This document shows positions 2,461 through 44,583 of a DNA stretch of 64,000 nt, one piece after another (position 1 is the stretch's first letter; each line of letters starts with the position of its first letter). Below the pieces are notes generated by a model. It was not told the DNA's origin. It worked only from the letters and a program-made list of their open reading frames with translations, and did no database searches. Origin of the DNA: Pseudomonas phage BRkr. The position numbers and the translations under genes are program-made. The stretch lies in sequence record LC765218.1, one strand, 5' to 3'.

Positions 2461-2466
2461 TTTTCA

Positions 2467-2483: not shown

Positions 2484-2527
2484 TGAGCCGTATCTAAGGA
2501 TACCGTTCGTTTAAAGAGGTGACTAAC

Positions 2528-3871: not shown

Positions 3872-3877
3872 GACAGC

Positions 3878-3910
3878 ATATTGCCCAGCCTATGGAAGGC
3901 TGGGCAATAT
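3878..3910. terminator. bidirectional terminator between convergent genes (atattgcccagcc...ggctgggcaatat)
   Basis: 13-bp inverted repeat between plus gene 3236..3871 and minus gene 3915..4427. Confidence 0.65.
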
Positions 3911-3914
3911 GTCG

Positions 3915-4427: not shown

Positions 4428-4502
4428 TTTACTACCTCACTGTTGAGAAATACTCAACGGAATAACAATATGCCATAAAATGCGGATTAGGGAGTTTTCT
4501 AT

Positions 4503-5045: not shown

Positions 5046-5098
5046 ATAGAGTTGCGAAACGAAACCTTCTCTTTAATCACCGTAGGTGTAAATGAAAA

Positions 5099-5854
5099 AT
5101 GGATTCTGTACAAGACCTTCTTTCCGATCCCCTTAAGGGAACGTTGCGAGCATCCGATATCCCGTGTTATCTGTTTCGTGAAGTTCTATTGTGGCGTAAG
5201 ATTAACCAACGTACATGGAACCGGCGGCAAGAAGCTTTCTTTGAGAAACCTTGGAATAAAAATAATCAAGACAAGGGTAACCTGAATAAAGCTCTTAAGT
5301 CAGACACGATGCAGTGGTCCGCTTTCAGAAAAGCAATTGACTTCCTGAACCCAGTCCACGCAACACTGGAGATTAAACTGACATGGCGTGACGATCGTGT
5401 TAGTTCGTATGTCATCACGATGGATCCCGAAGAACGGGAAGATGTTCTGACGACCAACAGTTTCCCTTGGCAGGATTGTAAGATATTCGAGAATGCTAAA
5501 CCCGCAGGTACATTGATGGCGCATCTTTTCAGGCACGTTGTTGCAATGGAAGGGAAAGATAAACCAGATATTAAACTCTGGTGGGAGAAGCTTTTTGATG
5601 ATTACACGAAGAATCCCGTTAATGTAGTTGGATTGACTCAGAAAGAAGTGAACCAAAATGTAAACACGTTACGACGTGCTCTGCTTGATCCGAGGGTATC
5701 TTTGAATAACTTCCGTCGTGGTATCCATTTGCTACGCGCAGTTAAGGAAGAATATATTCTGACCCTCCGTTGGTCCGATGATCCAGTTGTCCGTGAATCA
5801 CTTCCGGACTCTGTTCACAAGATCACTATAACTGACCCTGTAGTTGTGGAGTAA
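5099..5854 (+). CDS. hypothetical protein (251 aa)
   Basis: ATG; long ORF. Confidence 0.5.
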   Translation: MDSVQDLLSDPLKGTLRASDIPCYLFREVLLWRKINQRTWNRRQEAFFEKPWNKNNQDKGNLNKALKSDTMQWSAFRKAIDFLNPVHATLEIKLTWRDDRVSSYVITMDPEEREDVLTTNSFPWQDCKIFENAKPAGTLMAHLFRHVVAMEGKDKPDIKLWWEKLFDDYTKNPVNVVGLTQKEVNQNVNTLRRALLDPRVSLNNFRRGIHLLRAVKEEYILTLRWSDDPVVRESLPDSVHKITITDPVVVE

Positions 5855-5858
5855 GAGA

Positions 5859-6236
5859 ATGGATAACTGTATTGACCTGAGCTCTCCCCTTTGCCCTGAT
5901 GTCCTTCAGTTCCATTCATCCGTGTTGAAACATACGGTTACCGGAACAGCTTTTTACAGCTGGAACGGTTTCCGTTTGTATCTTATTACAGGAAAGGTTC
6001 ATCCCAAATATCTAGATGGTATCAACCTTGAAGAAGCTGGGGTGGAAAGTAGATACAAGTTCGTTCCAGATCTGTACGAAAAGATGGAGGAAACTCTTCG
6101 TGTGTGCATTGCCAAGTACCCCCTCCTAAAACTTAAACTTAATAAAAACACACAGATTGTGTGGCGTGCTCACGGTATTACCCCAGCTGAAGAAGAATGG
6201 GTCAATATCGTTAAACGTGTTGCTTCAAGTATGTAA
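5859..6236 (+). CDS. hypothetical protein (125 aa; ATG downstream of the table TTG at 5844)
   Basis: AAGAGA SD upstream of ATG 5859. Confidence 0.45.
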   Translation: MDNCIDLSSPLCPDVLQFHSSVLKHTVTGTAFYSWNGFRLYLITGKVHPKYLDGINLEEAGVESRYKFVPDLYEKMEETLRVCIAKYPLLKLKLNKNTQIVWRAHGITPAEEEWVNIVKRVASSM

Positions 6237-11329: not shown

Positions 11330-11524
11330 TTAACCGAGGAATTTGCACATACGGGCAACGATAGCTGCCTGAATATCTTCTTTGGTCAGATACTCACCTT
11401 CTAGAGTAGCTGCCGAGGTGTCACCGCCGATGGAGCGAAGCAAAGCTTCGGCTCCAAGTTCGGCAGCAGCAGTCAGAACAGCGATGTTCTGACTGAGTAC
11501 TACGTTGTTACTTTGATTTTGCAT
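11330..11524 (-). CDS. small acidic protein (64 aa); its start overlaps the last 17 nt of the RNAP beta-like gene
   Basis: ATG embedded in the ...ACAAATGCAAAATCAAAGTAA stop region; translational coupling is plausible. Confidence 0.35.
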   Translation of the reverse strand: MQNQSNNVVLSQNIAVLTAAAELGAEALLRSIGGDTSAATLEGEYLTKEDIQAAIVARMCKFLG

Positions 11525-14500: not shown

Positions 14501-15869
14501 TAGAAGCATCATCAACGGCTTGTTCAAACGAACGACCAGAGATCATGCCAACTTGATACAGTTCAAATGCTTTTTGTCCAACAGGGTCTACTAAAGCGTC
14601 ACCGCTGCTAAAAGCAGGTACGACCGATTTAGTTACCGGGGCTGTCTCTACTTTGAGAGTTGGTGTTTTATTGATCGGCGCCGTTTCGAGCGGATCTTTC
14701 TCGATGACGAGAGTAGTTTTCTCAAGCTCAGATTCAGGCGGTGGATCATAAACAACTTCGAGCATCCCGAGATCGAGTAATGTGCTAACATTAGATCCAG
14801 TTGCATTGGAATCATCGATCGCATCAATGTCGTTAGCTTCTTCAGTTTCTTCAGCACGTTCTGTAACTTCTTCGACTTCTTCGTCGTCTGTGTCAACCTT
14901 ATCTTCGGGTTCGATCAGGTCAGTGATCTTTGGAGTTTCAGGTTCGACTTCCATTAGAGTGTCGTTACCATTATTGAACTCAACCAAAGTAGTCAACAGG
15001 CTGATAACTCGACGTTGCATTACATCCGGTTTATAGAAAACTTCAAGACCGAGTTCATCCACAAAACTTTCAGTAGCTACTGTCTCTTGTTCCGCTATTA
15101 CTTCTGGAGCATCACGCCATGCTTCAAGTTGTCCAAGGTTAATAACAAAGAAGTTATTCTGGACACGAATCAGGAAGTTAATCTTTTCGTAAGCTTCTTT
15201 AGGTACGATCGACATATAAGACGAAGATCGATTATCACCAAGGAAACGATAAAGATCGAAAACGTTTAATACAGCGTTAGTACGGAATTTCTCAAGTAGT
15301 GCCTGAGTGGTACCGCGCTCTAACATCTTAAATTCATTAAACGTTGGCATGAATTCCGGAATATGGAGTTCGATGAACTGATTCCAACCAAAGCGTTTAT
15401 GTACATCGACAACACCTTTCCAGAAGGTAGCGGTGTTGTTACTCCAGCGATACCAGTTAGATTTGAAATTAGCTTGGTACTTCCAGAGTGGGTTTAGCAT
15501 GCTGTAGTTAAACACAGCAACGTTTTGAATATTGAGTTTTACAGCCGCATCTTTACGCAGTGGTTTGAAGAAACGGTGTTGGCGACGGAAATCAGCTTCA
15601 AGGGTAGTCGGAATAAGAGAAGTACGCCGAGCGTTACCATCGAGTGTTTCTAGCTGTGTAATGTGTTCAATGAACACCTTTCCCTGCAACTTAGCAAAGA
15701 GGGGGTCCGATTGACTCGGACCCTTTACAGCAGCGTTGTCATCAAGGAACTGATACACTACCTCTTGGGGTAGCTCTAGCTTCGTCAACGGGAACAGACG
15801 AGGACGCAGTAGTTCGCCTGAGTTTCGAAGACTGTAATTCTTCAGAAACTGATGAATTTTCAAACGCAT
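11508..15869 (-). CDS. multisubunit RNA polymerase beta-like subunit (C-terminal-half homolog, 1453 aa; phiKZ gp180-like virion RNAP subunit)
   Basis: C-terminus VIRIYIDHDIPCGTGDKGVV...CEDGTPIGLIFGNTSVEERMVM aligns with E. coli RpoB [28 protein letters not shown]...[23 protein letters not shown] with identical spacing; ANLREQEAM resembles the RpoB ANMQRQAV segment. Confidence 0.8.
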   Translation of the reverse strand: MRLKIHQFLKNYSLRNSGELLRPRLFPLTKLELPQEVVYQFLDDNAAVKGPSQSDPLFAKLQGKVFIEHITQLETLDGNARRTSLIPTTLEADFRRQHRFFKPLRKDAAVKLNIQNVAVFNYSMLNPLWKYQANFKSNWYRWSNNTATFWKGVVDVHKRFGWNQFIELHIPEFMPTFNEFKMLERGTTQALLEKFRTNAVLNVFDLYRFLGDNRSSSYMSIVPKEAYEKINFLIRVQNNFFVINLGQLEAWRDAPEVIAEQETVATESFVDELGLEVFYKPDVMQRRVISLLTTLVEFNNGNDTLMEVEPETPKITDLIEPEDKVDTDDEEVEEVTERAEETEEANDIDAIDDSNATGSNVSTLLDLGMLEVVYDPPPESELEKTTLVIEKDPLETAPINKTPTLKVETAPVTKSVVPAFSSGDALVDPVGQKAFELYQVGMISGRSFEQAVDDASMYKSIPDPFGSGKTIAEAMVYEEEDFKVPVEQFADKSTITDKSMLGSIHKSMMRKYTKTLLPKDIMQSILSVQAQGVAVTDVRMEEVRDAMNHYQSFTVTVKPIRGRPSQLRFRIPVIDRDGRFRSNGVTYRQRLQRADIPIRKVNPLKVALTSYYNKTFVTRSERAENNYDTWLIRQIGVRARDNNDVSVTEVRYAELDQSMFVLPRVYSALGRAYRSFKNGANEFYFKFDDHAEYFQKTYGISVEALEKDGMVVVGAHNRLPILVDSSSQFYVKEGNELEPMGTMVDILGLNQVKAPLEAILVSVANKELPLGFILGYRQGLSTLLDTLGVQYQSHPRGTRISVSPDDYTLAFSDEILVFSRQDYRATLVLSGLKRYHQSLKKFSRWDFDRRDVYFRLLEEAGMSARYTREIDGLFTSFVDPITKGLLEEMKEPTDFQGLLYRSVELLTNDWSPAEVDGAYMRYRGYERMAGTIYGSLNRAVRIYNNREGSADQQIVMDQHEVWRKIASDPTVATIEDSNPIANLREQEAMTYRGDGGRGSTSMVARTRIYHESDVGVVSESTVDSGDVGVIAYLSPDANFNSMRGTTRLFEKGKDGAAKMLSTGALTGVATTNDDPKRINFVSIQQQQGIYADGYEVTPLRTGYEQIIAQRTSSIFASAAEQDGEVIAVDGHGITVKYADGEIFSSQLGTVHGTAAGVNYPHTLVTTLKKGDKFKRGDTLTFNSKYFTEDRYTPGQVLWKAGVMVRVAFCDNLDTLEDGSVISKDVAIKLNTQTTDIKNITVRFDQSIENLVKVGEHVDLDSILCTIQDPEMAENSLFGAAAIETLKKLSANAPRAKVVGTISKIECYYHGDIEDMSSNLQKIARASDKERADRAKSLNEPEFTGEVDASFRVKGQMLEPDNMVIRIYIDHDIPCGTGDKGVVANQMKTVFSRVMDGRNECEDGTPIGLIFGNTSVEERMVMSPKLIATTTILQQALSKHVAALYRGTTNAKSK

Positions 15870-15871
15870 GG

Positions 15872-17524
15872 TTAAATCCTACTTTTCGGTTCCCCAGTCA
15901 TATACCGGAGAGTTAGATTAAGCGTGTGGATGTTGACACTGAATGCAAGACCACCACCAGCCTTGATATAAGCTAAACGAGATTTAAAGAATCGATCGGA
16001 TTCTTCAATAGCCTCTTTAGAATACACGGCGTTGAATGACACAGTGTCACCGTCGAAGTCCGCACCAAGAGGAGCAAGAATAGACGGGGAAATAGACGTG
16101 GAGTCATGCCATTGCGCCGGTTCGTTAATAGTGATGATTGGATATTCTAATGCGATCTCAGCATTAGTATCTCGTTCCCAGTCCCAACCAAGTGGGTAGC
16201 GCATCTCACCTTTAACAGTTGTCTTCACGTACATCTTTACAGGAATAGAACTGTTATAGTTCTCAACAGGGTAACGAGTAACGAATGCGGAGTTTCTTTT
16301 CCACATAGGTAATCCGCTTAGGTAAATCAATTCAGCATAGGAAATAGGACGCACGAACTTCTTGTCGAGCTTCTTCGGCATTTCTTCAATATCCCTAAAG
16401 ATCTTGAAGTTTTGCTTGTCATCAAGATAGACCAATGCCAAATAATGCCCAGCGATCTCAATTGCACGAGAACGCTTTTCGATGACCTTTAGTTCACCAA
16501 TAACGCGTTCAAGACCTTCGGGAGTTCCCCATATGTCCATCTCTTCGTTACTAATATTAACCCATTCCAGTTTCAATGTCTTCTTATTGATAAGCTCAAC
16601 ACGAGTAGAGAGACTATCGAAGACTTGACCGACAACACCATTGCGTAAATGGTAAATAGTCTTTGGTTTAACGGATACAGCTGCTTGATAAATACCAATT
16701 ACGGCATCTTTGAACTTAGGACGGTTTGGCTGATCAAGATCAGCAGCATTGGTATCAAGCGAACTAATAACGTTACGAGTACCATTAAATACTCGACGAG
16801 ATGCCCATTTCTGTTGAATATAACCACCCTTGCCAGATAATAGGTTTTCGTAATGGTTATAAATCGCAAGAGCAGTCAACTGCATCGAAGTACGCTTACG
16901 ATCATAAATACTCAGATCGTCATTAGGTCCGAAATATTCAGGGACACCATAAGACTGGTTAAGCAGATATCGATAGTGTTCGTTAACTTCGTCCATCGAT
17001 ACACGGCCATCAACATCAATCTCGGCCTCACGATATGCAGCTGGAATAACGAGCATGTTTTTGAATGTACAGTTTTTCATGTACTTCTTCATCAACTCTA
17101 CCCGTACTCGACGAATAGATGATTTAGTTTCACCGAAATCGATCTTCTTCCAGTTATCAAAGAAAAAGGCGTAACCGGTTTTACCTTCAAGCTCATTGGA
17201 ACGTACGAAGTCTTTAGCAACTGGATCAAATACAGCGAATGATTTACCAAGAATGATCTCTTCGTAGAAAGCCTTTAGTTTAATAAGGTTACGATAGATC
17301 ACAGGGTGGATAATCTCAAGACCCATGTTGATATAACCGAATCGACCTTCACGTTCAGTAGAGCCTACTCGTCCGAAAATCTCTACGGAGAATAAACCTT
17401 TCTCATGAAAGTTACCACCGGTACCTTCGAAGATCTCGTGGCTAGTTACTTGTCCCAACATCGAAAGCTGTGCTTGGGTCGGAATCAAAAGATCAATGTT
17501 GAATGGGACTAGTGCCTTCTTCAT
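15872..17524 (-). CDS. multisubunit RNA polymerase beta-prime N-terminal-like subunit (550 aa; phiKZ gp178-like)
   Basis: GLFSVEIFGRV / RFGYINMGLEIIHPVIY (RpoC GLFCARIFGPV / RMGHIELAAPVAHIWF), RRVFNGTRNVISS (RpoC KRVDYSGRSVITV), and LGADFDGDTVSFNAV (catalytic NADFDGD); 2-nt gap to the downstream beta-like gene. Confidence 0.8.
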   Translation of the reverse strand: MKKALVPFNIDLLIPTQAQLSMLGQVTSHEIFEGTGGNFHEKGLFSVEIFGRVGSTEREGRFGYINMGLEIIHPVIYRNLIKLKAFYEEIILGKSFAVFDPVAKDFVRSNELEGKTGYAFFFDNWKKIDFGETKSSIRRVRVELMKKYMKNCTFKNMLVIPAAYREAEIDVDGRVSMDEVNEHYRYLLNQSYGVPEYFGPNDDLSIYDRKRTSMQLTALAIYNHYENLLSGKGGYIQQKWASRRVFNGTRNVISSLDTNAADLDQPNRPKFKDAVIGIYQAAVSVKPKTIYHLRNGVVGQVFDSLSTRVELINKKTLKLEWVNISNEEMDIWGTPEGLERVIGELKVIEKRSRAIEIAGHYLALVYLDDKQNFKIFRDIEEMPKKLDKKFVRPISYAELIYLSGLPMWKRNSAFVTRYPVENYNSSIPVKMYVKTTVKGEMRYPLGWDWERDTNAEIALEYPIITINEPAQWHDSTSISPSILAPLGADFDGDTVSFNAVYSKEAIEESDRFFKSRLAYIKAGGGLAFSVNIHTLNLTLRYMTGEPKSRI

Positions 17525-17591
17525 TTCAAATTTCCTCTTAGGGGTTACAAAAAGCTAAACGATATGATTGTTTATATCGATGGAGTTGACC

Positions 17592-20500
17592 ATGGCTACA
17601 AAAAAGACCAAGCTGCCAAAACCTGCTGGGATGAATGCCCAGAACAGAATTGGTGTACTTGACCTTAATGAGCTGGACGACCTGTTTGATGATGTCGGTG
17701 AAACCACCAAACCTGGTGATCCAGTAACCGATTTCAAATCTGGTCTGAAAGAGGGCTTCCTCGGTGGATTGAAAACCAAAGACATCGTAAGGAATTTCTT
17801 ACGAAGCGCAGCGCCTGATGGTTTCGCGCGTCTTTTTGGTGCCTATGATGATGTAATGGCTTCGGTAACCGATATCAAAGATACGGTCGAAAGAGTCAAT
17901 GCATCCGACCTAGATTACCTTGGTCGTAAAGCACAGGATTATCTACCCCAGTTAAAAGATCGCATTCCAAATGCCTTATACGAAAATATCTCTGATACGC
18001 TCACCAGAAAGGTTGAACAATATCAGTACGAAGTGGATTCCCAAAGGGACCAAATCGCTATTCGTCGTCGTCGGCAAGAAAATGATGATGCAAATGTAAT
18101 TAAAGCTGCTCTCGATCAGAATACGCTGGTAAGCAGAGAAAACTTCCAACGTAGTGAACAGGGTGCAGTTGCCCGCGCTGCCGTTGAAAGAGCAGAACGT
18201 GGAATTCGTGATAAAGTAAGTGCTGGACGCTTTGACTTTATGTCCCGTTCGATGGGGATGGCTGTAGATAGTCTAACTCGTCTTGTAGGATATAACGAAC
18301 AAGTTAATTATGGAATTCAACGTAAAGGCCTTGAACTTCAGTTCCGTACCTACATGGGTATTAGGGATCTTGTTAAAGTACAAGAAGCTAATCTTGAATT
18401 GCAGAATAAGGCTTATGAAGCATTAGTTCGTAATACCGGCTTACCAGACTACAAGAAAGGCAATGTTGGCGATCTAACCAGTTTTGGTTCAGGTCGCGGC
18501 CGGGGCAACATGCTCGGACGCCTAGCTGGCGGAGCTGCACAGGGCCTTCATGGCTTCTTGGGTAGTTATGGTAACAAAGTAAACGAACGTGTTGCCAGCG
18601 GCCTGGGCGGACGTCTATCGGAGATCGTAGCCGGTCTACGCATGGGCGATATGGCTGGTTCATCCGTTTGGGATAATCGCTATAAGTTCGCTGGTCAAAT
18701 CGCAGGTGAATACGGTGCCGATATCCTTAAGTCGTCTATTGTTCCATGGGCAGGTCGTAAAGTTCGTCCGACTATGGAAAAACTATCCAACCGTTTTGGT
18801 GGACGCCATCATCAGGTAGGGTATGCCCTAGACAACGTTCCAGCATATCTACAAGAGTTCGTTAATAACTACCAAAACACTTATGGTTTCCGTGGCGTTA
18901 TCCGTGATGCTATTATGCCATTCGTTCCTCAGTACCACATGAACGATCGTTTGGAAAACGGAAACTATCAAACAATTGATCAAGGCACGGCCTTTAACCA
19001 ATTGACGCAGCGTAGTATCGTTGAAGTCATCCCAGGTTACCTGTCTCGCCAGCTTCAAGAATTGCGAATGATTCGCACTGGTCGTGATGATATCGAGCGT
19101 GAAGTATTCGATATTACAACTGGTCGATTCGAAGTTCAATCGCTGTCGGATGATCGTCTTCAGAAGAAGATTATTCCAGCAGCAGCAATTCGAAGTGCGA
19201 GTGGTGCCATTAATGACACATTGAACTTGATGGATGAAGAGGGTAAACTTTCTCCAGCTGCACGTAAGGCACTTGGTGAACGTATGCTTCGCGATGCATC
19301 TACAAACCGTAGATTTGATCCAGAAGCTTACCTTAAATCCGGCGGTTATATGGATGGCTTAGATGCCACCACCACAGATGAAATTCAAAGGTTCTTCAAG
19401 AGTAAGTTCCAGTACGACGATAAAGGTAAAATGGCGGATAACGCTGATAACCATCGTCTACGTGATGAATACTCGCGTGCCTTCCTCGATATTCGTTCTG
19501 TAAGTCGTGACCCAGTTAAAGAAGTACATCGTCTAATTAATGCCGGTCAAACCGAGCCTCTTCGGATGCTTGGCATTATCATTACTGAACAAGGTCAAGA
19601 TAGAATAAACTATAACCGTATTTGGGAAATCATGCGCTCCGGCGTGACTGATACAAACCCATGGGTTAATGGTGACTATCAACCTGAAGCTTCTGGTGAT
19701 ATGAATGATAAGAACTTCTTTGGTCCTGCTTACCCAGGTGCAGCTAAAGCCAATGCGCTTAATGCAATGCACCGCTTCCGGAATAAGCATGCTCCACAGG
19801 AAGATCGAATCAAGAAAGAACTATCTCGCTACAGCCGTATTGCACAGGGGAAATTCCAGTACCTGAACAATAAGCACGGCGCCGGTATACATGACTTTGC
19901 TAACAACATGCGTAATGGTCAATTTGGTCCTTACGTTGCTGGTCTGCAAGGAGCTTGGAATGATGCGAGTGTAATGGGTCAAGATCTCTATTCTAAGACA
20001 CGTGCTAAGTTTGGAGAACACATGGATCAGTTCCAGAATGATCCAACCCAATATGCAATCGGTCAGAAAGATAAGATCATTGATGTGTTCACGAAGTTTA
20101 ATCCAAATGAACCCATCATTAAAGGTATTGATTTTGTTCAAGGTAACCTTGTTGACTTTAATACTAAAAAGATTATCGAATCTGTACACGACATTACCGG
20201 TAAGGTTGTTTCTACAACTGGCATGACGGTTCTAACAGCATCTGAAGTTGCCCAGGGTCTGTTTGATAAGAAAGGAATGCGTCTTGAATTACCTGCCTTC
20301 ATGAGCAATGCAGCGGACAAAATCCGCGGTGCTCTAATGGGTGGACAAACTCCTCCTGCTCAACAGTTTGCTGAAGGTGAAAACGCACAGCAAAAACAAG
20401 CAGCTGAAGATGATAAGCATGACTGGTATTTGGATGGTGAGCAAGAACCTACTATCTCTGCTCGTGGTCTAAAGAACGGTGAATACTTCAACGCAGATGG

Positions 20501-23500
20501 TGACCAGATTAATTCGATGCAAGACATCAAAGGTGATGTACTTGATAAGAATGGATCTATCATTGCAACTGCTAAGGAACTAGCTTCTGGTCTATGGTCG
20601 CGTGCTACTCGTAAACGTTGGCGTCTTACTAAGACAGGTCGGCGTCTAGCAAATGTAGCGGGTTGGGGTGCCAAGTTCATGGCAACGAATACATCTACCT
20701 TAGCGTGGAACGCACTGAAGTTTGGTGCTAAGACAGCGATCGGTATGGGTTCGGCCCTATTCAACTTCGCGATTGAAACTCAGAATGCTTATTTACCTGG
20801 TGATGATGTACCTGTACTCGAACGAAGACTAGTTAATGCTGGTAAGTACTTCGATGATAAAGGTCGCGTAATTGAAAACTTTGGCGATGTGTATGGCACG
20901 ATCTTTAACGAGAGAGGCGAACCTGTAATAGAACCATCTCTGTATAAAGACCTTAAGAACTACGACGGTACCAAACATATATTAGCTAAGAATAAAGGTA
21001 TCATCCGTAAGACTGTATGGCGTGGTATTCGCGCTGCTCGTTCGAAGTATATCGATGCTTCCATGAAGTACATGGGTTGGGCATTGAAGAAGACGGGTAA
21101 GTTCTATGGTGGTGCAGCTAAGAAAGTGTTTGGTGGTTTCGCTAAAGCGGGTGGTAACGTTCTTGGACGTATCTTTGAACGAGTACCATACGAAGACTTC
21201 GAAACAACTGATCAAGTACTATTGGGTCGCATTCTTGAAACTCTTCAAGCACAAGTTCCAGAAAAGCTCCGAGCTGGTAGTTGGCAGGATAAAGCAGAAA
21301 AGGCCAAAGAAGGCGCTGCTGGCTTGATGGATAAATTGAAGGGGAAAGGAGATGGGGATACTGATAAAGCTGAAAATAAAGTCCTGAAGGGGTTATCCGA
21401 TGGACTGAAAGGTATCTTCAGTAAACTTACCGGTACCGAAGGTGAAGAAGGCTCTGGTGCGTTCGACGTGCTTATGGGCGGTGGTATGAAAGGTGGCGCT
21501 AAAGGTCGTTTAATGGGCCTTGCTAAACGCGCAGTTCCTTGGCTCCTTGGAGGTACCGCTGCTGCTGTAGGTACAGGCGCCATGGCGTATGGTTATAGTA
21601 AAGATGGAATGGATGCAAAGCAGACAGGTATCCTGACTGCGATGAGTCTTAATTCACTTGGACAATTAACTGCACGTTATATCCTGAAACCTATCTTTGG
21701 TCAAATGAATGATCAGAGGGCAGAGTTCCGTCGTCTTCGGATGCTGCAATACGGTATCACTGATCATGATCAGCAACAGAAAGTCTCTGCGCTTGAAGAT
21801 GCTTTTGATCGCGTAACTGAACGGACAGAAGAACCTGACTTTAATATCAGTGGAGTTGGTGGTAAGGCTATTCTTGACATTCTTGGCATTGACGTTAAGA
21901 ATGAAGTCCAAGTAATGCGGATGTCTCGCTGGTTGGAAATGCGTTTCCGTCCTGTCTTCCTGACTTGGGTTAAGGCATTAGCTAAACTCAAGAAGAATGA
22001 AGTTAAACTCGTTGATATCGATAGTAAGTTCCCACAAGAACTGAAAGGACCATTAGTTAAAGCTGTTAAGATTTCTGTATCTGGTGATACACCGATGCAG
22101 TATCGTGTCGATCCATTCTCTGAAGAAGGTGAATTGGAAGATACCATCCCAGCAGCCGATCAACTATGGAAAGCTCTATACGTTCGCTATAAAGCGGGTG
22201 AGAAGAAAGAAGATGCTGTACCGGCTACAGCGGCTAATACCGAAGTAGCTACTAAAGCTCAGGATATCGCCAAGAAAGCGGCAGATACTGCAACTGGTAA
22301 AACTACACCGAGTCCAATGGATCCTACTAAATCAGCAATGCCTTTGGCTGCTGCTAAGAAAGCTTTCCCTGGTCTAGGTGGTTCAACTGGTGCACCCATA
22401 GTCGCAACCTCGGCAGCTACCACTAAACTAACTGCACTCCAATCCATCCGGATGCGTGCTTACGGTTTAGAAGTACTGAGTTTCTACAATGTCTATCCTC
22501 TTCTAAATGCTGAGGCAATGGTATTTGATGGTCTATCTATTCAGGGTGGTATTCCTGAATTCCGTGGTGACCTAGAATCTATCATGCAAGAAACAGCACC
22601 GCTGTTTGGTAAGGATATCGTTGGTAGTGACGAAGATCGTTCGGCTTACTACGATTGGTTCGTTGGTCGATTCATGCCTGTTGCTCGTGCTTACTACGGA
22701 GCAATGCGTAGTTCGACTCAAGGAACAACCATTGCGAACATGGAATCTAAACTTAAACCCAGCGATGCCGTTATCGTGGGTAATGCTGTACTGGGCGTCA
22801 CTGATTTTGATGGCTCTAGCGTATGGCAGGTTGATTCCATTTTCCCAATTAAGGGAAGTAAAGACGATCTCAAGAAAATGGCTGAAGCTGATTTGGAACA
22901 ACTGAAGAAAGATGCAAGCAAAGACATCATGTCTACGCCGACTCAATCTGCTGGTGACCAAGCAGCTGGAACACAAAGTGCAGCCGCAGGTGGCAGCTTT
23001 GCCGAGAGGGCAATGGCTTCTATCTCGAATACTTGGGAGTCTACTAAAGAAACAGTGAGTAATGCATGGAATAATACCAAGGCAGCTGGCGCTAAAGCAA
23101 TGGACTACATGTCCGACGCTACAGCGACTGCGCAATACAAGCTTGGTATGGCTGGTGAGGTATCTGCAACAGGTCGTACATACGGAACTCTGACGAAGGG
23201 TAACGGTGGCGCTTGGGAACAGATTCCATATCCGAAAGCTAACAAGTCTCGTCAAGCTGCTGCTGAAACATTCCAAGCAGTTGCTGCGATGGTCGGTATT
23301 CCTGTAGAACTGCTGTTCATCTTTGCATCACTTGAGTCTGGTTTTGATTATACTGTCAAAGCTAAGACATCGTCTGCAACCGGATGGTTCCAGTTTATCA
23401 ATAGTACCTGGGACGCAATGTTGGCGAAACATGGCTCCAAGTTCGGTATACCTCCAGACGACGCCCAGCGTAGTTTACGTGTTGATCCACGTATCAACGC

Positions 23501-24362
23501 CTTAATGGGTGCATGCTTCCTTAAAGATAACTACACTTACCTCAAAGATGCATTAGGTCGTGATCCTACGGACGTTGACCTATATATCGCACACTTCATG
23601 GGTCCAGGTGGTGCTCGTAAGTTCTTGACTCGTAATCAGGATACTATCGGCGCATCTGTTTTCCCAGAAGCCGCATCTGCTAACCGACCTATCTTCTACA
23701 AGAAAGGTGGACAACCCCGTACACTCGGGGAAATCTATCAAATGTTCGAAGAGAAGATCGCGAAGCATCGCGGTGGGGCTGAAGGTAGCTCTGTAGCTAC
23801 ACAGGAAGCTGGTAAGACAATGACCACTGATGAGGCAACAGAAGAACAAGCTAAGGCTAATGCCAAAACATCTGCTGCTGAACTATGGAATACTGATGAT
23901 AGTAACAATGCAGGCAATGCAGCTGTTGCTCGCGAAGAAGCTTACAGTGCCACTGGTACTGCTGCCCAAACGCCGGTACTTCCAGGTATTACCCCAATGA
24001 ACCCTGTGGGTGGGACAACTACTAGCGGTGCTAATCCATCTGCTGATAGTGGCGGTAATGTGGTCCAAGCTCAACAAGAAGCAGCTCTTCAAGCAGCACA
24101 GCAGTATAATTCGACTCGTCAAGCTGAAGTACGTCGTAATAACGAGAAGGCTCAACAGATCGATGATATCCAAGCTGAGCAGCTTAAGACGTTAATTGAG
24201 ATGCGTGATCATCTCAAGCGTTTGGTACAATTGAACGAACAAAAGGACAGTGGTACCAAAGAAGCTTCGAAAACCCAAGCCGGAGGAAATAATAGTATGA
24301 CCTCCACGTTAATGAGATCGACCTCGGCTCAAAATCGACCGTCGCCGCTCACGCTAACTTAA
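17592..24362 (+). CDS. giant virion protein (~2256 aa) with a C-terminal lytic transglycosylase (SLT) domain; phiKZ gp181-like
   Basis: GGAG SD before ATG 17592; SLT motif [38 protein letters not shown]...[14 protein letters not shown] at ~23290-23700; Gly/Ala-rich and coiled-coil segments. Confidence 0.8.
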
Positions 24363-37294: not shown

Positions 37295-40200
37295 TCACCG
37301 CAAATATGCGGGAACATTAGATTTGGGTTTAAGGGGTATCTCGAAATCAACTGTCGGAATCTCGATGTCGAATTTTTCGAATGCTTTCTGAAGAACACTA
37401 TGGATTACTTTGTTCTCATCAAACTGTGTTTCATCACCATAGTCTTCCATTGCCTCTCCAATCTCAAATGGAGACTTGATACCCATAATCGCTTCTACTT
37501 GATCCTGACTCCATTTAAGAATATCAGCCGATCGGGTAGAGATATTTGGGATATCCCCAGTATCGAGAGAACACTGGTAAACAACAACTTGAGAATCTTG
37601 ACCTAAACGATAAGCACGAGATATAGCCTGTTCCAGAATATAAGCTCTGAATGGACTATTCAATAGAATCAAGGTATCTGCCATTGTCAGGCGAACAGCC
37701 GTCGATAGAGAAGCATATGTAGCATTGAGTGGATTTAGATCCTTACCCGAATCAAAGCGTTTAACGATTTCAGCCAGTTCATTAGTAGTCTTCCCATAAA
37801 CGGCTAGTGGTTTCATACCTAGCTTAACACAATGTGCATCTGCTGCTTCCACTGCTTCAACAAAGCTAGTAAACATAATCGTCTTCTTGTGAGTAGATTC
37901 TGTAATACCAACCCAGTCGACATACGGGACCATTGCCACGTGGCACTCAATACGTTTACCACCTAACACACGTCCAAGACATTCACCTTGAATCTTAAGG
38001 TTAGTATATTTAATAACCGATTTGATGTCTCTGAACTCATGGATGAATTGCTTTGGAAGGGAAGGTCCAAATACTAATTTCTCGTATTGGTTCGTTGCTT
38101 TAATTTCCTCTCCTGCAAAGCGTGGATCAGGGATCTGTTGAACATACTTGACCAGATCCAAGTACTCTTTGAAGGCTCTTTCCTGTGCGGCTGTTTTGAG
38201 GGTTTTTCGATGGAGTCCACAGAACTCTGCCCAGCGTTTATCATCTTCAGGTCTCCGCTTCTTGTAGTAAGCCCAGCGTTCTTGAATAAATGCTTCCATA
38301 ACCTTTCTAATAGCCGGAAGGGTGAAGTCATCACCATTCGGAATTTTAATTGGATAAGGACGCATGATCGGGGGCTCTAGGTCGAGTTCTTGTTTCTCTA
38401 CCTTGTAGGATACGAGACCTAATCGATGTCTGATTATATCGAGTCCTTTAGATGCTTCTTTACCATACATCTTCTTGAAGCGTTCTTCTACCTGCGGAGT
38501 GAATAGAGGATCTACTATTCGCAGTAAGTTAATCAGTTCAACACCCAATGCTTTTACAGGCGTGCCCGAAGCTAAAAGATTATTACGAGAACCGACCATC
38601 TTTACAATGAGTTGATAAAGTTTAGTCCGTGTAGAGTTAGGGTCATTCATGTTGTGCGATTCATCTAGAATCGTCACAGTACGTTTGCTACCAACTATAT
38701 TACGGTTTCTAAGAAGTTCTACTACCTTATCCATTGCATCGTAATGACAGACGATCCAACGCTGTCCTTTGTAGGGCATATTAGGTTCGAACGTATGCCA
38801 AACTGTTTGCGGCTTATGGAACATCTCTTTCAGGGAATCTAACCAGACTAGATCCAAAGCATTCTTAGGACACATTACAACAATGAGTTCAGCATCAAGC
38901 ATCTCGGCAATAGCTGAAGTAAGATATGTGTTATGTGTCACGACGAAATCATCGGTTACATAAAGGTGATCGGGATGTTCAACCTGAATACATTGACATT
39001 CCACTCGATCTGACAGGTTAACATGTTTCACCTGTAAACGAAGATTATCCGCGTATTGGTGATTGTCGTTGCATCGAGCTATTTTGCGATCAAGGCGGAA
39101 AAGCGCACTGGGGGTATCAAACCGGACAGCTACCCGATAAGACATGTTACCGTACTTCTTGACGCCGTTGTACGTGAATGTAGGCTCTTTGAACGCCAGT
39201 TTGGCAATTCCACCCAGGGAACGAACTAGGTACTGGAACTGCTTGGCTAACATGTAGCTGCAACTGGTGAAACTGAGGTTGCTATTCTCGTCAACTGTAC
39301 CATCCGTGTCCATAAGACCTTGTACAAGAGCCAATCGCTGGGCAGTAGAACTGAACAGGTATTCTTGCGGAATGAATTTAGAAAGGGAATTCGTTCCTAG
39401 CAAATTCATATCTCGAAGAGCACTGATATATGGGTTACGTTCACCTTTCTTGTTGATGACCCCCATGGTAATGGAGTCACGGGCAATAAGATTGAGGTTA
39501 TCCGGGAGAGCTTTACTAAACGTGTCGAATAGCTGAGGATCACCACTGGTAATGGTCACACAACTCGAACTGATCCCACCGGCGCCAAGAATAACTCCGA
39601 GGTTATACGGATCGATCGGTAGATCGACATCCATACCTTCTTCGGACTTACAGAGTTGCACGTAAAGTCGATTCCGGTATGACTTCATAGACATGTAACC
39701 GAACAGGGTGGCGGTGTTGATTACTCGCCAACCATCGCTACCGTCCCTCGTCCAATTATAGCAATAGACTCGCCATAGGTGCTCATCACATGCTTCGGTC
39801 GTGCGACCGTCTTTGAAGGTAACCGTAAAAGTTTGTTTCTTCCCTTGTGGGTAAACGCCGGTGACCTTAGTCGGGGTACCGTCCCAAGCAGTGACCATGT
39901 CACCAACTTGAATATCACCCATACGTTTCCAGCCACCAGGAATTTTAACCATGGCGTTTAGTGGTTGTGCCTTACCCGTACCGGCGGCCGCGGCAATTAA
40001 GTCACCATTTAGATTGTATTGATCTAGCCGATAGGTATAGTTCTTGAAATATTCTAATTGATACGGTTTTGGATCAAATTTTAATCGAGACAGATTAGCT
40101 AGATTAAGTCGCCCTTGTACTGATTTCTCATCAATGGCTTTAGTAGAGGCAAGCCAAGTATTCTGTAAAAGCGCATCTTTAATAGCAGCGATCATTTTTA

Positions 40201-40450
40201 CAGAGGTGTATCGAGAACGGTAATAGACAATGTTTTCCAACATGTACATTACTTCAGGTGCAAAGAACTTATAGAAGCTTAATGAGTTCCGACCAATGTT
40301 GTTGAACAAGTTGGTTGTAATCTTGGAAGTCTTCCAATGCTTACTGATATCTCGGACTATGTCGAAGCCACGAATACCAGAGATGATAATCTCCGTTTCA
40401 GTTTCTTTGACTGTCAAGCCGCCAAATATCGAACGGAATGAGTCTAACAT
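37295..40450 (-). CDS. SNF2-family (SF2) helicase/ATPase interrupted by a 347-aa intein (1051 aa precursor)
   Basis: Motifs I GTGK|T (split by the intein), II TILDESHN, III LLASGTPV, IV KTIMFTSF, V LSTAVRLTMADTLILLNSPF, VI QAISRAYRLGQ (the SNF2 QAxxRxxRxGQ motif). Confidence 0.85.
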   Translation of the reverse strand: MLDSFRSIFGGLTVKETETEIIISGIRGFDIVRDISKHWKTSKITTNLFNNIGRNSLSFYKFFAPEVMYMLENIVYYRSRYTSVKMIAAIKDALLQNTWLASTKAIDEKSVQGRLNLANLSRLKFDPKPYQLEYFKNYTYRLDQYNLNGDLIAAAAGTGKAQPLNAMVKIPGGWKRMGDIQVGDMVTAWDGTPTKVTGVYPQGKKQTFTVTFKDGRTTEACDEHLWRVYCYNWTRDGSDGWRVINTATLFGYMSMKSYRNRLYVQLCKSEEGMDVDLPIDPYNLGVILGAGGISSSCVTITSGDPQLFDTFSKALPDNLNLIARDSITMGVINKKGERNPYISALRDMNLLGTNSLSKFIPQEYLFSSTAQRLALVQGLMDTDGTVDENSNLSFTSCSYMLAKQFQYLVRSLGGIAKLAFKEPTFTYNGVKKYGNMSYRVAVRFDTPSALFRLDRKIARCNDNHQYADNLRLQVKHVNLSDRVECQCIQVEHPDHLYVTDDFVVTHNTYLTSAIAEMLDAELIVVMCPKNALDLVWLDSLKEMFHKPQTVWHTFEPNMPYKGQRWIVCHYDAMDKVVELLRNRNIVGSKRTVTILDESHNMNDPNSTRTKLYQLIVKMVGSRNNLLASGTPVKALGVELINLLRIVDPLFTPQVEERFKKMYGKEASKGLDIIRHRLGLVSYKVEKQELDLEPPIMRPYPIKIPNGDDFTLPAIRKVMEAFIQERWAYYKKRRPEDDKRWAEFCGLHRKTLKTAAQERAFKEYLDLVKYVQQIPDPRFAGEEIKATNQYEKLVFGPSLPKQFIHEFRDIKSVIKYTNLKIQGECLGRVLGGKRIECHVAMVPYVDWVGITESTHKKTIMFTSFVEAVEAADAHCVKLGMKPLAVYGKTTNELAEIVKRFDSGKDLNPLNATYASLSTAVRLTMADTLILLNSPFRAYILEQAISRAYRLGQDSQVVVYQCSLDTGDIPNISTRSADILKWSQDQVEAIMGIKSPFEIGEAMEDYGDETQFDENKVIHSVLQKAFEKFDIEIPTVDFEIPLKPKSNVPAYLR
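38930..39970 (-). mobile_element. intein (residues ~161-507) with a LAGLIDADG homing-endonuclease domain, inserted between K and T of the Walker-A GTGKT
   Basis: N-terminal block A AQPLNAMVKIPGG..GDIQVGDMV (Ala1 instead of Cys); LAGLIDADG-like LVQGLMDTDGTV; C-terminal VVTHN followed by +1 Thr; the exteins rejoin as AAAGTGKTYLTSAIA. Confidence 0.7.
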
Positions 40451-40718: not shown

Positions 40719-41672
40719 TCATCGAATCAAACGTAAAGCTGGATTGAATCCACGGCTACTACCATAAGCTGTAAAAGCATTGTCAAGCTGGTGAGCGATA
40801 GATGTGCTAAATCCACGTTGGATACAACGGTTATCTTCAGTAACAGCTTTATAGAAAATATTCAAGCCATTACCTGGAGCTATAGACGATGGTAACTGAT
40901 TACCATAACGACTGCGTTGATAACCAGAATACAACTGTCCAGTTGGGTTTACTGCTGTATTGAATAGACGTTCGAAGGTATCTAAAGCTAGATCATTCAT
41001 CACATGGAGACTTACCATCGCATCAGTAGCATTGGTGTATACTACCTTATCACCATGTGGGATACATCCAACAGCAAAACTATTACCATTCCTAGAATAG
41101 ATCCTACCCTGCATTACAGCTGGATTAGTGAGAGATGATGGCAAAGTACCAACACCGTCTTCTACCGTATCAAGGAGAACACCTGTCCTATAAACATCCA
41201 TGAATGACATTCCAGAATATGGAACTCTGTTCGGGATGTAATACGTTACACCTTTGAACTGTATTTTCCATGCTTCTGTTGGTTGATCAACAGTATTCGT
41301 GAAGTTAGATGGTAAAGCCAAATTTGTTTTAAAATCAGCCACCTCAAAGACATCTTCGATTGGACATGTTCCGAAGTAGCCAATCCACCAGTCACCGAAT
41401 ACGGGAGTTTCGGGACCAGGTCCTTTATTAGTGTAATCAATAATGCAAATAGCTTTTACATCACTCAATACGAAAGAACCTGTATTGTCCGTACCAATAA
41501 CAAGATAGAAATAAGGTGTATCTTTCAAAGCAGTATCGTCTACAAATTCTCGATCAGTAACATCCAGCTGCTTAAAAACAGCTGGAAGATTATTCACATC
41601 AAATGGTTCTGTAGAACGATAAGCTTTTAAGTCAACAATATCACCTGTAACCGAAAAGCCTACTTTAATCAT
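40719..41672 (-). CDS. paralog 4 of a four-gene tandem family (317 aa; FN3-like N-terminus + conserved C-terminal domain), putative fibre / receptor-binding protein
   Basis: Shares GPGP...GYFG...W(K/H)KF..G..F.(P)...(V/L)Y..G motifs with the three upstream genes. Confidence 0.6.
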   Translation of the reverse strand: MIKVGFSVTGDIVDLKAYRSTEPFDVNNLPAVFKQLDVTDREFVDDTALKDTPYFYLVIGTDNTGSFVLSDVKAICIIDYTNKGPGPETPVFGDWWIGYFGTCPIEDVFEVADFKTNLALPSNFTNTVDQPTEAWKIQFKGVTYYIPNRVPYSGMSFMDVYRTGVLLDTVEDGVGTLPSSLTNPAVMQGRIYSRNGNSFAVGCIPHGDKVVYTNATDAMVSLHVMNDLALDTFERLFNTAVNPTGQLYSGYQRSRYGNQLPSSIAPGNGLNIFYKAVTEDNRCIQRGFSTSIAHQLDNAFTAYGSSRGFNPALRLIR

Positions 41673-41680
41673 CGAATCAC

Positions 41681-42631
41681 CTATAGCTCTAGTTCTAGAA
41701 TTGGCATGAATGCAGCCGCGCTATTTACCAGAGTACTGGAAACGTTTATAAGCGCTGCACCTCTGACCAATATAGACTGGGTTTCACCTACGAATGTACG
41801 CGTCATGAAGATACCCGAACCAGGTGCGCCGCCCGTCATTACAACGTTCGTTGAAGTCGAGTTAACGCGTGTTTTAAGGTTAGGCTTATTGATGTTCGAT
41901 GCATATGCAATTAGACGATCCCATGTGAGGCCAAGTAGATCATTAAACTGATCATAGACAGCCTGTCCAGCAGCTATACTTGCGAGTGATCGTTCACCAG
42001 CAAATGTAGGCAGGCCAACTCTGTAACTATGATTCTTAATAATGACAGTCTTACCTTGTTCGGTTGGCGTACCAACTACAGTCTTAACAGGAGCAGGAAG
42101 ATCATCCCAATGGTCTCCGGACGTTGACCAAGCACAACCCGCATTATAGACATCGGCCCAACGTAGGTTATAAGCCACGTAGCGAATTGGCAGCATGAAA
42201 ATGCGCCCATCTACAACGAACTTATGCCAAATGAAATCCGTTACAGGTGGAATTCTAATATCAGTCAAAAGACTGAGTCCACAAAGATCTGTTATTTCAC
42301 CAGGTAATACAAAATCTGGAACCTCACCAAAATAACCTAATTCATAGTCTCCAGAACGAAGGGTATTTGGTCCGAAACCAGTGTAAGGCATGTTAGCAAG
42401 TGCAACCACTTTGGAATAGGTTACATCACCATTTTCAAAATTAGAACCGATGCAGTAATAGTAGACTTTATTTCTAATAGCTGTTGTATCATCGTATTCT
42501 TTGATGTTTCCTTGCACATTAACTAATACACTAGGTAATGTCGATTCATCGAATTTTGTTTCAGAACGAAAAATATCAAATGTGACTGCTTCGCGATCAT
42601 TGGTCAAACCCCATTGTACTTTAATACCCAT
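41681..42631 (-). CDS. paralog 3 of the tandem family (316 aa)
   Basis: YTGFGPNTL..GYFGEVP..WHKFVVDGRIF..VYNAG..ILELEL. Confidence 0.6.
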   Translation of the reverse strand: MGIKVQWGLTNDREAVTFDIFRSETKFDESTLPSVLVNVQGNIKEYDDTTAIRNKVYYYCIGSNFENGDVTYSKVVALANMPYTGFGPNTLRSGDYELGYFGEVPDFVLPGEITDLCGLSLLTDIRIPPVTDFIWHKFVVDGRIFMLPIRYVAYNLRWADVYNAGCAWSTSGDHWDDLPAPVKTVVGTPTEQGKTVIIKNHSYRVGLPTFAGERSLASIAAGQAVYDQFNDLLGLTWDRLIAYASNINKPNLKTRVNSTSTNVVMTGGAPGSGIFMTRTFVGETQSILVRGAALINVSSTLVNSAAAFMPILELEL

Positions 42632-42633
42632 TA

Positions 42634-43620
42634 TTACACCTCAAAGTCAACGAAGTTACCAGGGATAAGTTCCAGTACAGGGAACCAAATGTTTGAACTT
42701 GAGGTTCTACTTGTATGTTGAGGTACAAAAGCCGAAGCTTTCGTTGCACTCGTATTTCGCGAAATATATGCAAAAGCTTGAGTGGTTGGAGTATCTCGTG
42801 TTAGAATAGCTTTATTATTAACACGTGTAGCCTCATTATCACCGGTTACGTTAACTCGTTCCAATGTTTTATTAGCATAGAACTGACTAGTTATACCAGC
42901 TAAAAATAACTCGACGGTACCATTGCTGAGAGATGGGTCAGAATTACCTAATGCAGTCGCCGCGGATGACGATAGATCACTAACAGAATTAGGATCATCG
43001 TGATCAACTAGAACGGAAGGTAAAGATACCTCAAACTCAGATAGAGCAAAGTTAATTCGCTTGCCCTGAGGAACAGGAGTAGTCACACCAGGGACAGTGG
43101 ATGGTACTGCATTCCTACTGTACACTAGACCCGCATTATAGAGGTCCATCCAGTACAGATCACCAGTAGCGATGGAATATTCAGGTACATAGAAAGTCCG
43201 TCCTTTCCATGCGAATTTATGCCAACGTTGACCAGCATTATTAGCGGCGTTCCAGGACAAACCACAACGAGCGATTAGTTCACTGTCCGAAATAAATTCA
43301 ACAGTGGGAAGAGAACCGTAGTAACCATAATTGATGTTACCTGCAACTAAGCGCTGTGGACCAGGTCCAGTGAAAGGCACCGCATGGAACTGGAATACAC
43401 GAGATTTAGCTACATCCCCATCTTTCGATGATTCAAACATGTAGTAGTAAATAAGTCCATATGTAAGCCCTTCGTCAGCATAACCGTCAACGTCACCATT
43501 GACTTCTGCTATTGGTGTACCAGGGTTGTTTCTATCAATCATTGTTGCCGATCGATAAATTTTAATACTTACGGACGCGTCGTTTGGGTTTACCCAACGT
43601 AGATTGATTGTAAATGCCAT
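42634..43620 (-). CDS. paralog 2 of the tandem family (328 aa)
   Basis: FTGPGPQRL..GYYGSLP..WHKFAWKGRTF..LYNAG..VLELIP. Confidence 0.6.
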   Translation of the reverse strand: MAFTINLRWVNPNDASVSIKIYRSATMIDRNNPGTPIAEVNGDVDGYADEGLTYGLIYYYMFESSKDGDVAKSRVFQFHAVPFTGPGPQRLVAGNINYGYYGSLPTVEFISDSELIARCGLSWNAANNAGQRWHKFAWKGRTFYVPEYSIATGDLYWMDLYNAGLVYSRNAVPSTVPGVTTPVPQGKRINFALSEFEVSLPSVLVDHDDPNSVSDLSSSAATALGNSDPSLSNGTVELFLAGITSQFYANKTLERVNVTGDNEATRVNNKAILTRDTPTTQAFAYISRNTSATKASAFVPQHTSRTSSSNIWFPVLELIPGNFVDFEV

Positions 43621-43632
43621 GTTAAATCATCC

Positions 43633-44583
43633 TCATGTGAAACTAAAGCTATTAATTCTAACTTCAGCTGTTTTATCTATCTTTCGCGATATACTGTTCA
43701 AGTCGATAAGCGTTTCATCTTGTGGGGCATTGCTAATATAAGCAATACTTACAGGAGTTGGTAGTGAAGTAAGCTGAATAATAGGTTGAATTCCACCAGA
43801 GCTGATTTCTGTATTAGTTATAATACTAGCTTCGGCTAAATTACTGTAAGCATTAATAGTCGTTTCTATTGGTACTAGGTGATATTCATCTTTAGGAATC
43901 AGCTCTAATACCGGACGCCAAATACCATTATTCGTTGGGGCATTATTATTTACAGACGTGATACTTGTGTTGTAAAACTGATACATTGGGCGCTGGGCTG
44001 TATTTAATGCCTTTGTCCATGTACCGTTACCAAGACCGATAACACTTGTGGGTCTATTGTCCCAAGACCCATTAGTCACTCGTGTAAATACCTGACCAAG
44101 TTCACTTGTTGGGTCTTCATTATTAGTTGGAGTGAATGGGTTCTCAGTTAGATGACCCATACGGATTCTAAACTGCCAGCTCCCTTCATCGTCAGTAAAA
44201 TGATAGAACTTATCTTGAACGGTATTATATCCACTTGGAATATTTTGACCAATCGTGTTGTCTCCAAATACAAGGCCTTTATCGTAAAGAACCTTCCATG
44301 AGACGTTGGTCATGTAGATAGATAAAGGTGCAAAACAAACCTTACCCATCCAGAAATATTTAACCCATTGTTGATTAGCGAATGAACCTACAATAGAGTT
44401 GGTATAGTCGGCTATATCTGCTTGTTCGATAAACCGTTCACGAAAATAAATATCTTTCGAATCGACTAGACCGAAATACCCAAGTGTCTCATTACCCTTT
44501 ATTAGGAATTTACTTCCTGGTCCAGAAAATGGATACTCTATAGCTTGCTTCTTTTGACTCAATGATAACAGCACTTCAAACAT
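43633..44583 (-). CDS. paralog 1 of the tandem family (316 aa)
   Basis: FSGPGSKFL..GYFGLV..WVKYFWMGKVCF..LYDKG..VLELIP. Confidence 0.6.
   Translation of the reverse strand: MFEVLLSLSQKKQAIEYPFSGPGSKFLIKGNETLGYFGLVDSKDIYFRERFIEQADIADYTNSIVGSFANQQWVKYFWMGKVCFAPLSIYMTNVSWKVLYDKGLVFGDNTIGQNIPSGYNTVQDKFYHFTDDEGSWQFRIRMGHLTENPFTPTNNEDPTSELGQVFTRVTNGSWDNRPTSVIGLGNGTWTKALNTAQRPMYQFYNTSITSVNNNAPTNNGIWRPVLELIPKDEYHLVPIETTINAYSNLAEASIITNTEISSGGIQPIIQLTSLPTPVSIAYISNAPQDETLIDLNSISRKIDKTAEVRINSFSFT

Follow-up and report, generated by a model that had tools for sequence, protein, structure and literature searches.

An intein, very probably of class 3, splits the P-loop of an SNF2-type helicase in Pseudomonas phage BRkr

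Helicase gene and its insert

A stretch of 64,000 nucleotides (nt) of Pseudomonas phage BRkr (record LC765218.1), hereafter the window, carries on its minus strand a gene for an SNF2-type helicase in which the Walker-A loop, or P-loop, is interrupted by an insert of 347 amino acids (aa). An earlier interpretation made from the letters of the window, here called the sequence-only reading, had taken this insert for an intein. The locus was found to be laid out as follows, with the flanking parts of the host protein designated as exteins.

37295..40450, minus strand: helicase host gene, encoding a 1051-aa precursor of an SNF2/ResIII-type superfamily 2 (SF2) helicase, as assigned from the open reading frame (ORF), Pfam and PHROG
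39971..40450, minus strand: N-extein, aa 1-160, collinear with the intein-free HPP-Temi allele
39971..39991, minus strand: Walker-A residues AAAGTGK at the end of the N-extein, GTGK ending at aa 160
38930..39970, minus strand: intein of 347 aa (aa 161-507), a HINT domain split by a LAGLIDADG endonuclease domain, as assigned from sequence, homologues and fold
37295..38929, minus strand: C-extein, aa 508-1051 and the stop codon, starting Thr508-YLTSAIA
38654..38665, minus strand: DESH, aa 596-599, C-extein motif
38558..38569, minus strand: SGTP, aa 628-631, C-extein motif
37598..37630, minus strand: QAISRAYRLGQ, aa 941-951, C-extein motif

The host protein corresponds to RVBP21_1040 of Pseudomonas phage BRkr (100% identity), matches the DNA helicase family PHROG 62 (2.8e-137) and has phiKZ gp203 and PhiPA3 gp233 as its orthologues, the annotation of the PhiPA3 record itself naming phiKZ gp203. 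The DNA of the gene shares 97-99% identity with that of phiLBG22, phiHQ and PA1C, which are ~300-kb jumbo phages of P. aeruginosa, and the helicase is kept across hundreds of jumbo phage contigs. A Pfam Helicase_C domain spans aa 850-950 of the precursor. When the insert was removed in silico, the spliced sequence matched ResIII with 41.1 bits (cut-off 22.5) over profile positions 2-162 of 164, whereas the unspliced precursor gave only a partial ResIII match that fell under the cut-off (20.1 bits). The spliced sequence also matched SNF2-rel_dom (27.8 bits, cut-off 24.9), with the match running through the junction, and Helicase_C (28.1 bits, cut-off 23.5). Walker A, DExH, motif III and motif VI were all present in addition to the three Pfam domains, as expected of an SNF2/ResIII-type SF2 helicase, and the downstream motifs DESH, SGTP and QAISRAYRLGQ named in the sequence-only reading were all located.

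Evidence that the insert is an intein

The insert runs from AQPLNAMVKIPGG to DDFVVTHN and lies between Lys160 and Thr508 of the Walker-A loop (GTGK/T, the slash marking the insertion point). No stop codon interrupts it and it keeps the frame of the exteins, so that the ORF runs unbroken over 1051 codons, and its GC content is 47%, compared with 39-42% in the exteins. Its excision yields the contiguous sequence AAAGTGKTYLTSAIA, and the predicted splice-junction peptide of the mature helicase is GTGK-TYLTSAIAEMLDAELIVVMCPK.

An insert-free allele of 704 aa was found in HPP-Temi (Pawinskivirus). It has the junction GTGK/TYLTSAIA and aligns collinearly with the exteins as predicted after ligation; in the DNA, the intein-free site reads GGTACGGGTAAG followed directly by ACATATCTTACTTC. 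Among the 120 best orthologues, the insert was absent from 96 and present after the same Lys in 24, where the inserts measured 197-358 aa and ended in THN/T or THN/S. These intein-free alleles, together with the rise in the ResIII score, put the insert far beyond chance. The boundaries proposed in the sequence-only reading (38930-39970, residues 161-507) were exact to the base, and its placement of the insertion between Lys and Thr of the Walker-A loop in an SNF2 helicase was confirmed by HPP-Temi and by the 96 insert-free orthologues. The comparison it had suggested, aligning the spliced extein with an intein-free homologue, gave collinearity and an exact junction with HPP-Temi.

Structural evidence agreed with this. 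An AlphaFold2 (AF2) model of the intein, built on 75 sequences, had a predicted local distance difference test score (pLDDT) of 95 and a predicted template modelling score (pTM) of 0.92. When this model was searched with Foldseek, PI-SceI was matched with a template modelling (TM) score of 0.74-0.76 and E values of 1e-14 to 1e-16, TliVMA and PI-PfuI were also matched, and the class 3 mini-inteins MchDnaB1 and MsmDnaB1 were matched with a target TM of 0.81-0.87. The HINT fold, the splicing blocks A, B, F and G, the C-terminal His-Asn and the nucleophilic +1 residue mark the insert as a genuine intein. The description of it as an intein with Ala1, Thr+1, a C-terminal HN and a LAGLIDADG endonuclease was thus borne out by sequence, fold and homologues, and the idea that homologous helicases might natively carry an insertion of ~350 aa at this position failed on the 96/120 orthologues without insert and on the HINT fold.

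The curated profiles were less sensitive. A hidden Markov model (HMM) check against Hint and Hom_end, also suggested earlier, left both under their cut-offs, with Pfam Hom_end_hint at 18.8 bits (cut-off 32.1) and Hint at an E value of 0.09, and TIGR01443 intein_Cterm likewise fell short (14.8 bits, cut-off 15.6), the Hint and intein-terminus profiles missing only narrowly; LAGLIDADG_3 gave a significant match to the insert (4.5e-8). HMM libraries would therefore under-call the BRkr helicase intein, and the deciding evidence came from the PHROG, PDB and homologue searches rather than from curated profiles. By local tblastn, no second copy of the intein was found within the 64,000-nt window.

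Splicing blocks and the class 3 signature

The residues relevant to splicing were located in four blocks.

39932..39970, minus strand: block A, AQPLNAMVKIPGG, with the non-nucleophilic Ala1, which is Ala in 105/109 aligned homologues and in 23/24 intein-bearing orthologues
39767..39808, minus strand: block B, GRTTEACDEHLWRV, with Cys61 (B:7), His64 (B:10) and Trp66 (B:12), aligned to H65/W67 of MchDnaB1 and MP-Be
38960..39004, minus strand: block F, VECQCIQVEHPDHLY, with Cys327 (F:4), the predicted initiating nucleophile and branch point, aligned to Cys124 of MchDnaB1 and Cys320 of MP-Be
38927..38947, minus strand: block G and the first C-extein residue, FVVTHN/T, with Thr345 (G:5), His346 (G:6), Asn347 and Thr+1, from the homologue alignment

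The Thr+1 of the intein is at the same time the Walker-A Thr of the helicase (Thr508). Invariance within the family was counted over 120 database homologues, with denominators that vary by position. The block B His and Trp were present in 118/118 homologues, Cys F:4 in 117/117 and the C-terminal Thr-His-Asn in 116/116, with the +1 residue being Thr in 101 and Ser in 15. The -1 residue among homologues was Lys or Arg, with Gly before it, and Cys61 (B:7) was kept in 69/75 family members.

Alignment to characterized inteins assigned the same roles. In a phmmer search against the PDB, MsmDnaB1 (6BS8, 6e-9) and MchDnaB1 (6RIX, 6e-8) were matched, and H64/W66/C327/T345 of the BRkr intein fell on H65/W67/C124/T143 of MchDnaB1, which constitute its published catalytic triad plus Trp (PMC7664689). 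The best PDB match, 6RIZ, was dropped as a natural relative because it is an engineered gp41-1 variant (C1A, F65W, D107C). The MP-Be intein was excised from Bethlehem gp11 by its published junction peptides, giving a numbering that matches the paper (S62, H65, W67, C320, T339, H340, N341). BLASTP aligned it with the BRkr intein over the full length (E 3e-29, 28% identity), placing C61/H64/W66/C327/T345/H346/N347/T+1 on S62/H65/W67/C320/T339/H340/N341/T+1. Splicing of MP-Be needs H65, W67 and C320 (PMC2807308).

The hallmarks that define class 3 inteins are a non-nucleophilic first residue, co-varying with Trp B:12, Cys F:4 and Thr G:5 (the WCT triplet), and Thr or Ser at +1 (PMC2807308, PMC5222942). 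In their splicing route, Cys F:4 attacks the N-terminal junction to form a block F branched thioester, from which transfer to the +1 residue follows (PMC2807308, PMC5222942). All of these sequence features were found in the BRkr intein, namely, Ala1, Trp66 at B:12, Cys327 at F:4, Thr345 at G:5 and Thr508 at +1. The insert is therefore very probably a class 3 intein at the classic P-loop site (GxxGxGK/T) of the SNF2-type helicase of a phiKZ-like jumbo phage.

Relation to known inteins

The prototype class 3 intein is MP-Be, from the terminase-like "DnaB" (gp11) of mycobacteriophage Bethlehem (Tori et al. 2010, PMC2807308). Its homology to the BRkr intein extends through the LAGLIDADG domain, the lengths are similar (341 and 347 aa), and both share a non-nucleophilic residue 1, His B:10, Trp B:12, Cys F:4, Thr-His-Asn, Thr+1 and a phage ATPase host. 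They differ in residue 1 (Pro in MP-Be, Ala in BRkr), in B:7 (Ser versus Cys) and in host protein and site, with Gln-1 in MP-Be but the P-loop Lys-1 in BRkr. MP-Be also keeps the Asp of the first LAGLIDADG motif (LGLWLGDG), where BRkr has Ala.

A close counterpart is the intein of PhiPA3 gp233, which occupies the same gene and the same GTGK/T site, is 345 aa long and has Ala1, HLW, ECQCIQV and THN/T. Unlike that of BRkr, its first endonuclease motif is LGVILGDG, with the catalytic Asp intact. Inteins at the same site also occur in phiLBG22, phiHQ, PA1C and SL2 and in the 24/120 metagenomic orthologues. Msm DnaBi1 (6BS8) and Mch DnaB1 (6RIX) resemble the BRkr intein in their helicase P-loop site, Ala1, WCT triplet and Ser or Thr at +1 but are mini-inteins that lack an endonuclease and have Asp (DxxH) rather than Cys at B:7; the redox partner Cys48 of Msm DnaBi1 has no counterpart in BRkr. 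By description, the Snf2 intein of Deinococcus radiodurans likewise belongs to class 3 and sits in an Snf2-family host, albeit a bacterial one (PMC5222942), and its block F branched intermediate was detected experimentally according to the citation of Brace et al. 2010 in PMC5222942.

By tblastn, homologues of the intein were found in 735 phage records, including 299 from mycobacteriophages and 107 from Salmonella phages. The PhiPA3 match was 81.6% identical, phage EL had matches in three places, and the sister phages had one place per genome. The hosts of the homologous inteins were P-loop NTPases (PhoH, DnaB, TerL, RecG, SNF2, ABC and AAA proteins), in agreement with the 2010 list of class 3 hosts, which comprised DnaB, RecG, SNF2 and terminase proteins with insertion mostly in the P-loop (PMC2807308), and with the description of Lys/Thr in the P-loop GK/T as a "classic" intein insertion site (PMC5050341). 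In view of these two reports, the rarity implied in the sequence-only reading was overstated.

Endonuclease domain

The central part of the intein carries the endonuclease.

39056..39670, minus strand: LAGLIDADG homing-endonuclease domain, approximately intein aa 101-305, from Pfam LAGLIDADG_3 and a fold like those of PI-SceI, TliVMA and PI-PfuI
39575..39601, minus strand: LAGLIDADG motif 1, LGVILGAGG, aa 284-292, where Ala130 has replaced the catalytic Asp, from the homologue alignment
39299..39328, minus strand: LAGLIDADG motif 2, LVQGLMDTDG, aa 375-384, with Asp223 intact, from the homologue alignment

The LAGLIDADG motif reported in the sequence-only reading, LVQGLMDTDG, is present; it is the second of the two, and the first (LGVILGAGG, with Asp replaced by Ala) had been overlooked. 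The motif 1 Asp was found in 108/117 homologues and in all five close relatives, Ala standing here in BRkr only. The codon is GAT in the relatives and GCC in BRkr; the DNA of the motif reads GGCGCCGGT in BRkr compared with GGCGATGGC/GGT in phiLBG22, phiHQ and PA1C, amounting to two to three adjacent base changes. An active double-strand cutter has two helices, each with a catalytic Asp or Glu, and in BRkr the domain fold is present but motif 1 carries D130A. Judged from these residues, the BRkr endonuclease can probably no longer make a double-strand cut and would be inactive or a nickase at most.

Other alleles have been disrupted in different ways. The PA1C record contains a 1-nt deletion in the endonuclease region, at gene nt 976 (locus 3001-6155), which breaks the frame and explains why its helicase stands in the record as two overlapping "SNF2 domain helicase" coding sequences (CDSs); the deletion reflects either an error of sequencing or an allele that is dead. 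In several orthologues the intein is a mini-intein of 197-298 aa from which both LAGLIDADG motifs have disappeared, HxW, Cys F:4 and THN being kept. The D130A change, the PA1C deletion and the mini-inteins represent decay as the homing cycle predicts.

Divergence among alleles

Substitutions were compared among the related phages as nonsynonymous (dN) and synonymous (dS) divergence. Between BRkr and phiLBG22, the intein showed 22 synonymous and 5 nonsynonymous differences (dN/dS of ~0.06), and across the phiLBG22 and phiHQ comparisons the ratio was 0.06-0.10, with 0 nonsynonymous differences in the C-terminal splicing block. The intein is thus under purifying selection among close relatives, and the splicing residues remain under selection. 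The same phiLBG22 comparison gave 27 differences in the 1041 nt of the intein and 0 in the 1635 nt of the C-extein, which, together with the GC contrast, suggests that the intein segment was exchanged by recombination.

In the comparison with PhiPA3, dN was 0.14 for the intein and 0.26-0.30 for the exteins; the exteins being more diverged than the intein, a later transfer of the intein between lineages is indicated. The opposite pattern was seen in the sister phages HHBS36_1 (locus 3001-6150) and PS119XW (locus 501-3650), which carry a 345-aa intein at the same site with DNA only ~63% identical to that of BRkr. Here dN was 0 for the exteins and 0.32 for the intein, with dS saturated. Their intein starts with Ser1 (SLRLDADIKIPGGW) and retains the WCT triplet and an intact LGVILGDG. 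The intein and its host gene hence have separate histories, and the divergence patterns are consistent with repeated homing or recombinational replacement.

Alternative explanations

In the sequence-only reading, Thr+1 was taken to attack the N-terminal junction directly. This is the class 2 route, and the BRkr intein instead carries the full class 3 signature. In favor of that route, Ala1 and a hydroxyl nucleophile at +1 are indeed present, Mja KlbA inteins sharing Ala1 and bypassing the first acyl shift, and WCT inteins could in principle go either way until Cys F:4 is mutated (PMC5222942). Known class 2 members, however, are all KlbA orthologues, confined to archaeal KlbA hosts, that lack WCT and have Ser G:6, Asp F:4, Thr B:7 and Cys+1 (PMC4031507, PMC2807308), whereas the BRkr intein has His G:6, Cys F:4, Cys B:7, Thr+1, WCT and an SNF2 host. 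Without a role for Cys327, its invariance (117/117) would have no explanation, and mutation of Cys F:4 abolished splicing in every WCT intein tested, that is, in MP-Be, Dra Snf2, Msm DnaB-1, Mle DnaB, as well as Bvi IcmO (PMC2807308, PMC5222942). A class 2 route with direct attack by Thr+1 is therefore considered very improbable. Only slightly more credence, and still little, is given to a decayed intein that has lost splicing and left the helicase gene effectively a pseudogene or its product a non-ATPase. The D130A change, found in BRkr alone among its close relatives, and the frame-breaking deletion inside the intein of the near-identical PA1C point in that direction, but the BRkr frame is open over 1051 codons with every splicing residue present, the 22 synonymous against 5 nonsynonymous differences include 0 nonsynonymous ones in the C-terminal splicing block, and the exteins have a dN of ~0 among sister phages, with the helicase kept in hundreds of jumbo phage contigs. 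That the helicase family natively carries the insert as an accessory domain, or that the insert is an endonuclease gene of its own or an intron, with no protein splicing, is scarcely credible. The sole point in its favor is the public labeling ("hypothetical protein," "DarB-like antirestriction" and two "SNF2 helicase" CDSs), against which stand the open frame without a stop, the HINT fold with blocks A, B, F and G, the seamless P-loop of 96/120 orthologues at the insertion position and the occurrence of the same element in unrelated P-loop proteins; chance and a native domain are both ruled out by the intein-free alleles.

Several considerations also weigh against assignment to class 3. The predicted splicing, block F intermediate and Cys327 requirement are carried over from homologues, of which MP-Be is 28% identical, and Msm and Mch DnaB1 resemble the BRkr intein in the splicing blocks only. 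A class 1 intein onto which WCT is grafted does not acquire class 3 splicing through the graft alone (PMC7664689), so that the signature alone is no proof of mechanism. In addition, the Ser1 allele of the sister phages retains WCT, and residue 1 is thus not rigidly coupled to the triplet.

Proposed splicing route

For a class 3 intein in the BRkr helicase, the characterized family members suggest the following course. The precursor would be made as a single 1051-aa chain with its Walker-A loop split. The Cys327 thiol, helped by His64 and Trp66, would attack the Lys160-Ala161 bond to give a block F branched thioester, and the N-extein would then be transferred to the hydroxyl of Thr508 (Thr+1), giving a block G branched ester. 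Cyclization of Asn347, helped by His346, would free the intein, and an O-to-N acyl shift would establish the native Lys-Thr bond, the product being a 704-aa helicase with a whole P-loop. Since the P-loop is split between Lys and Thr, ATP binding by the helicase should require splicing, and to that extent the dependence of ATPase activity on splicing claimed in the sequence-only reading is supported. At the DNA level, the intein probably spreads, or once spread, by means of its endonuclease into intein-free alleles of co-infecting phages.

A second cysteine and the allele series

In the P-loop class 3 subfamily, block B has the form CxxH (CDEH in BRkr), while other inteins have Thr, Ser or Asp at B:7. 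Block F of the BRkr intein further contains a CxC (Cys325-Gln-Cys327), which is also found in many subfamily members. It is conceivable, if unlikely, that a second thiol near Cys327 forms a reversible disulfide, making maturation of the helicase redox dependent, or acts as a relay nucleophile. Such a redox pair would be like the "cysteine toggle" of Msm DnaBi1, except that it would lie within the active site.

No new mechanism or new kind of element is revealed by this intein; as a class 3 P-loop intein it is typical, the kind having been known since 2010, and it is unannotated in this phage group. The same-site records, those of the BRkr relatives and of PhiPA3, carry no intein annotation in public databases, and the literature searched yielded no paper that describes an intein of the phiKZ gp203/PhiPA3 gp233 helicase. 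For annotation, the mature products would be given as a 704-aa SNF2 helicase of the phiKZ gp203 family and a free 347-aa intein. The Ala1 and Ser1 alleles, whose exteins are identical in protein sequence, form a natural pair with which it can be asked whether residue 1 matters given WCT. More broadly, intein-free, Ala1, Ser1, crippled-endonuclease, frameshifted and mini-intein alleles make up a natural series in one phage genus, which serves as an illustration of the homing cycle and would lend itself to studies of how class 3 inteins splice in nucleus-forming jumbo phages.

Other features of the window

Elsewhere in the window, the products of 11508..17524 (minus strand) and 17568..24362 (plus strand) are split RNA polymerase beta-like subunits of phiKZ type (1453 and 550 aa) and a tail fiber protein of 2264 aa with a transglycosylase domain. 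These RNA polymerase subunits and the tail fiber protein indicate that the window belongs to a phiKZ-like jumbo phage. An Snf2-type helicase has been reported to be linked with phage RNA polymerase genes (PMC7824862), with which the layout of the window agrees. An NAD-dependent ligase is also encoded in the window. Finally, at 40719..44583 (minus strand), four tandem ORFs of 316-328 aa were found to be mutually diverged paralogues (23-28% identity, E values down to 2e-28); in related phages they are annotated as virion structural proteins.

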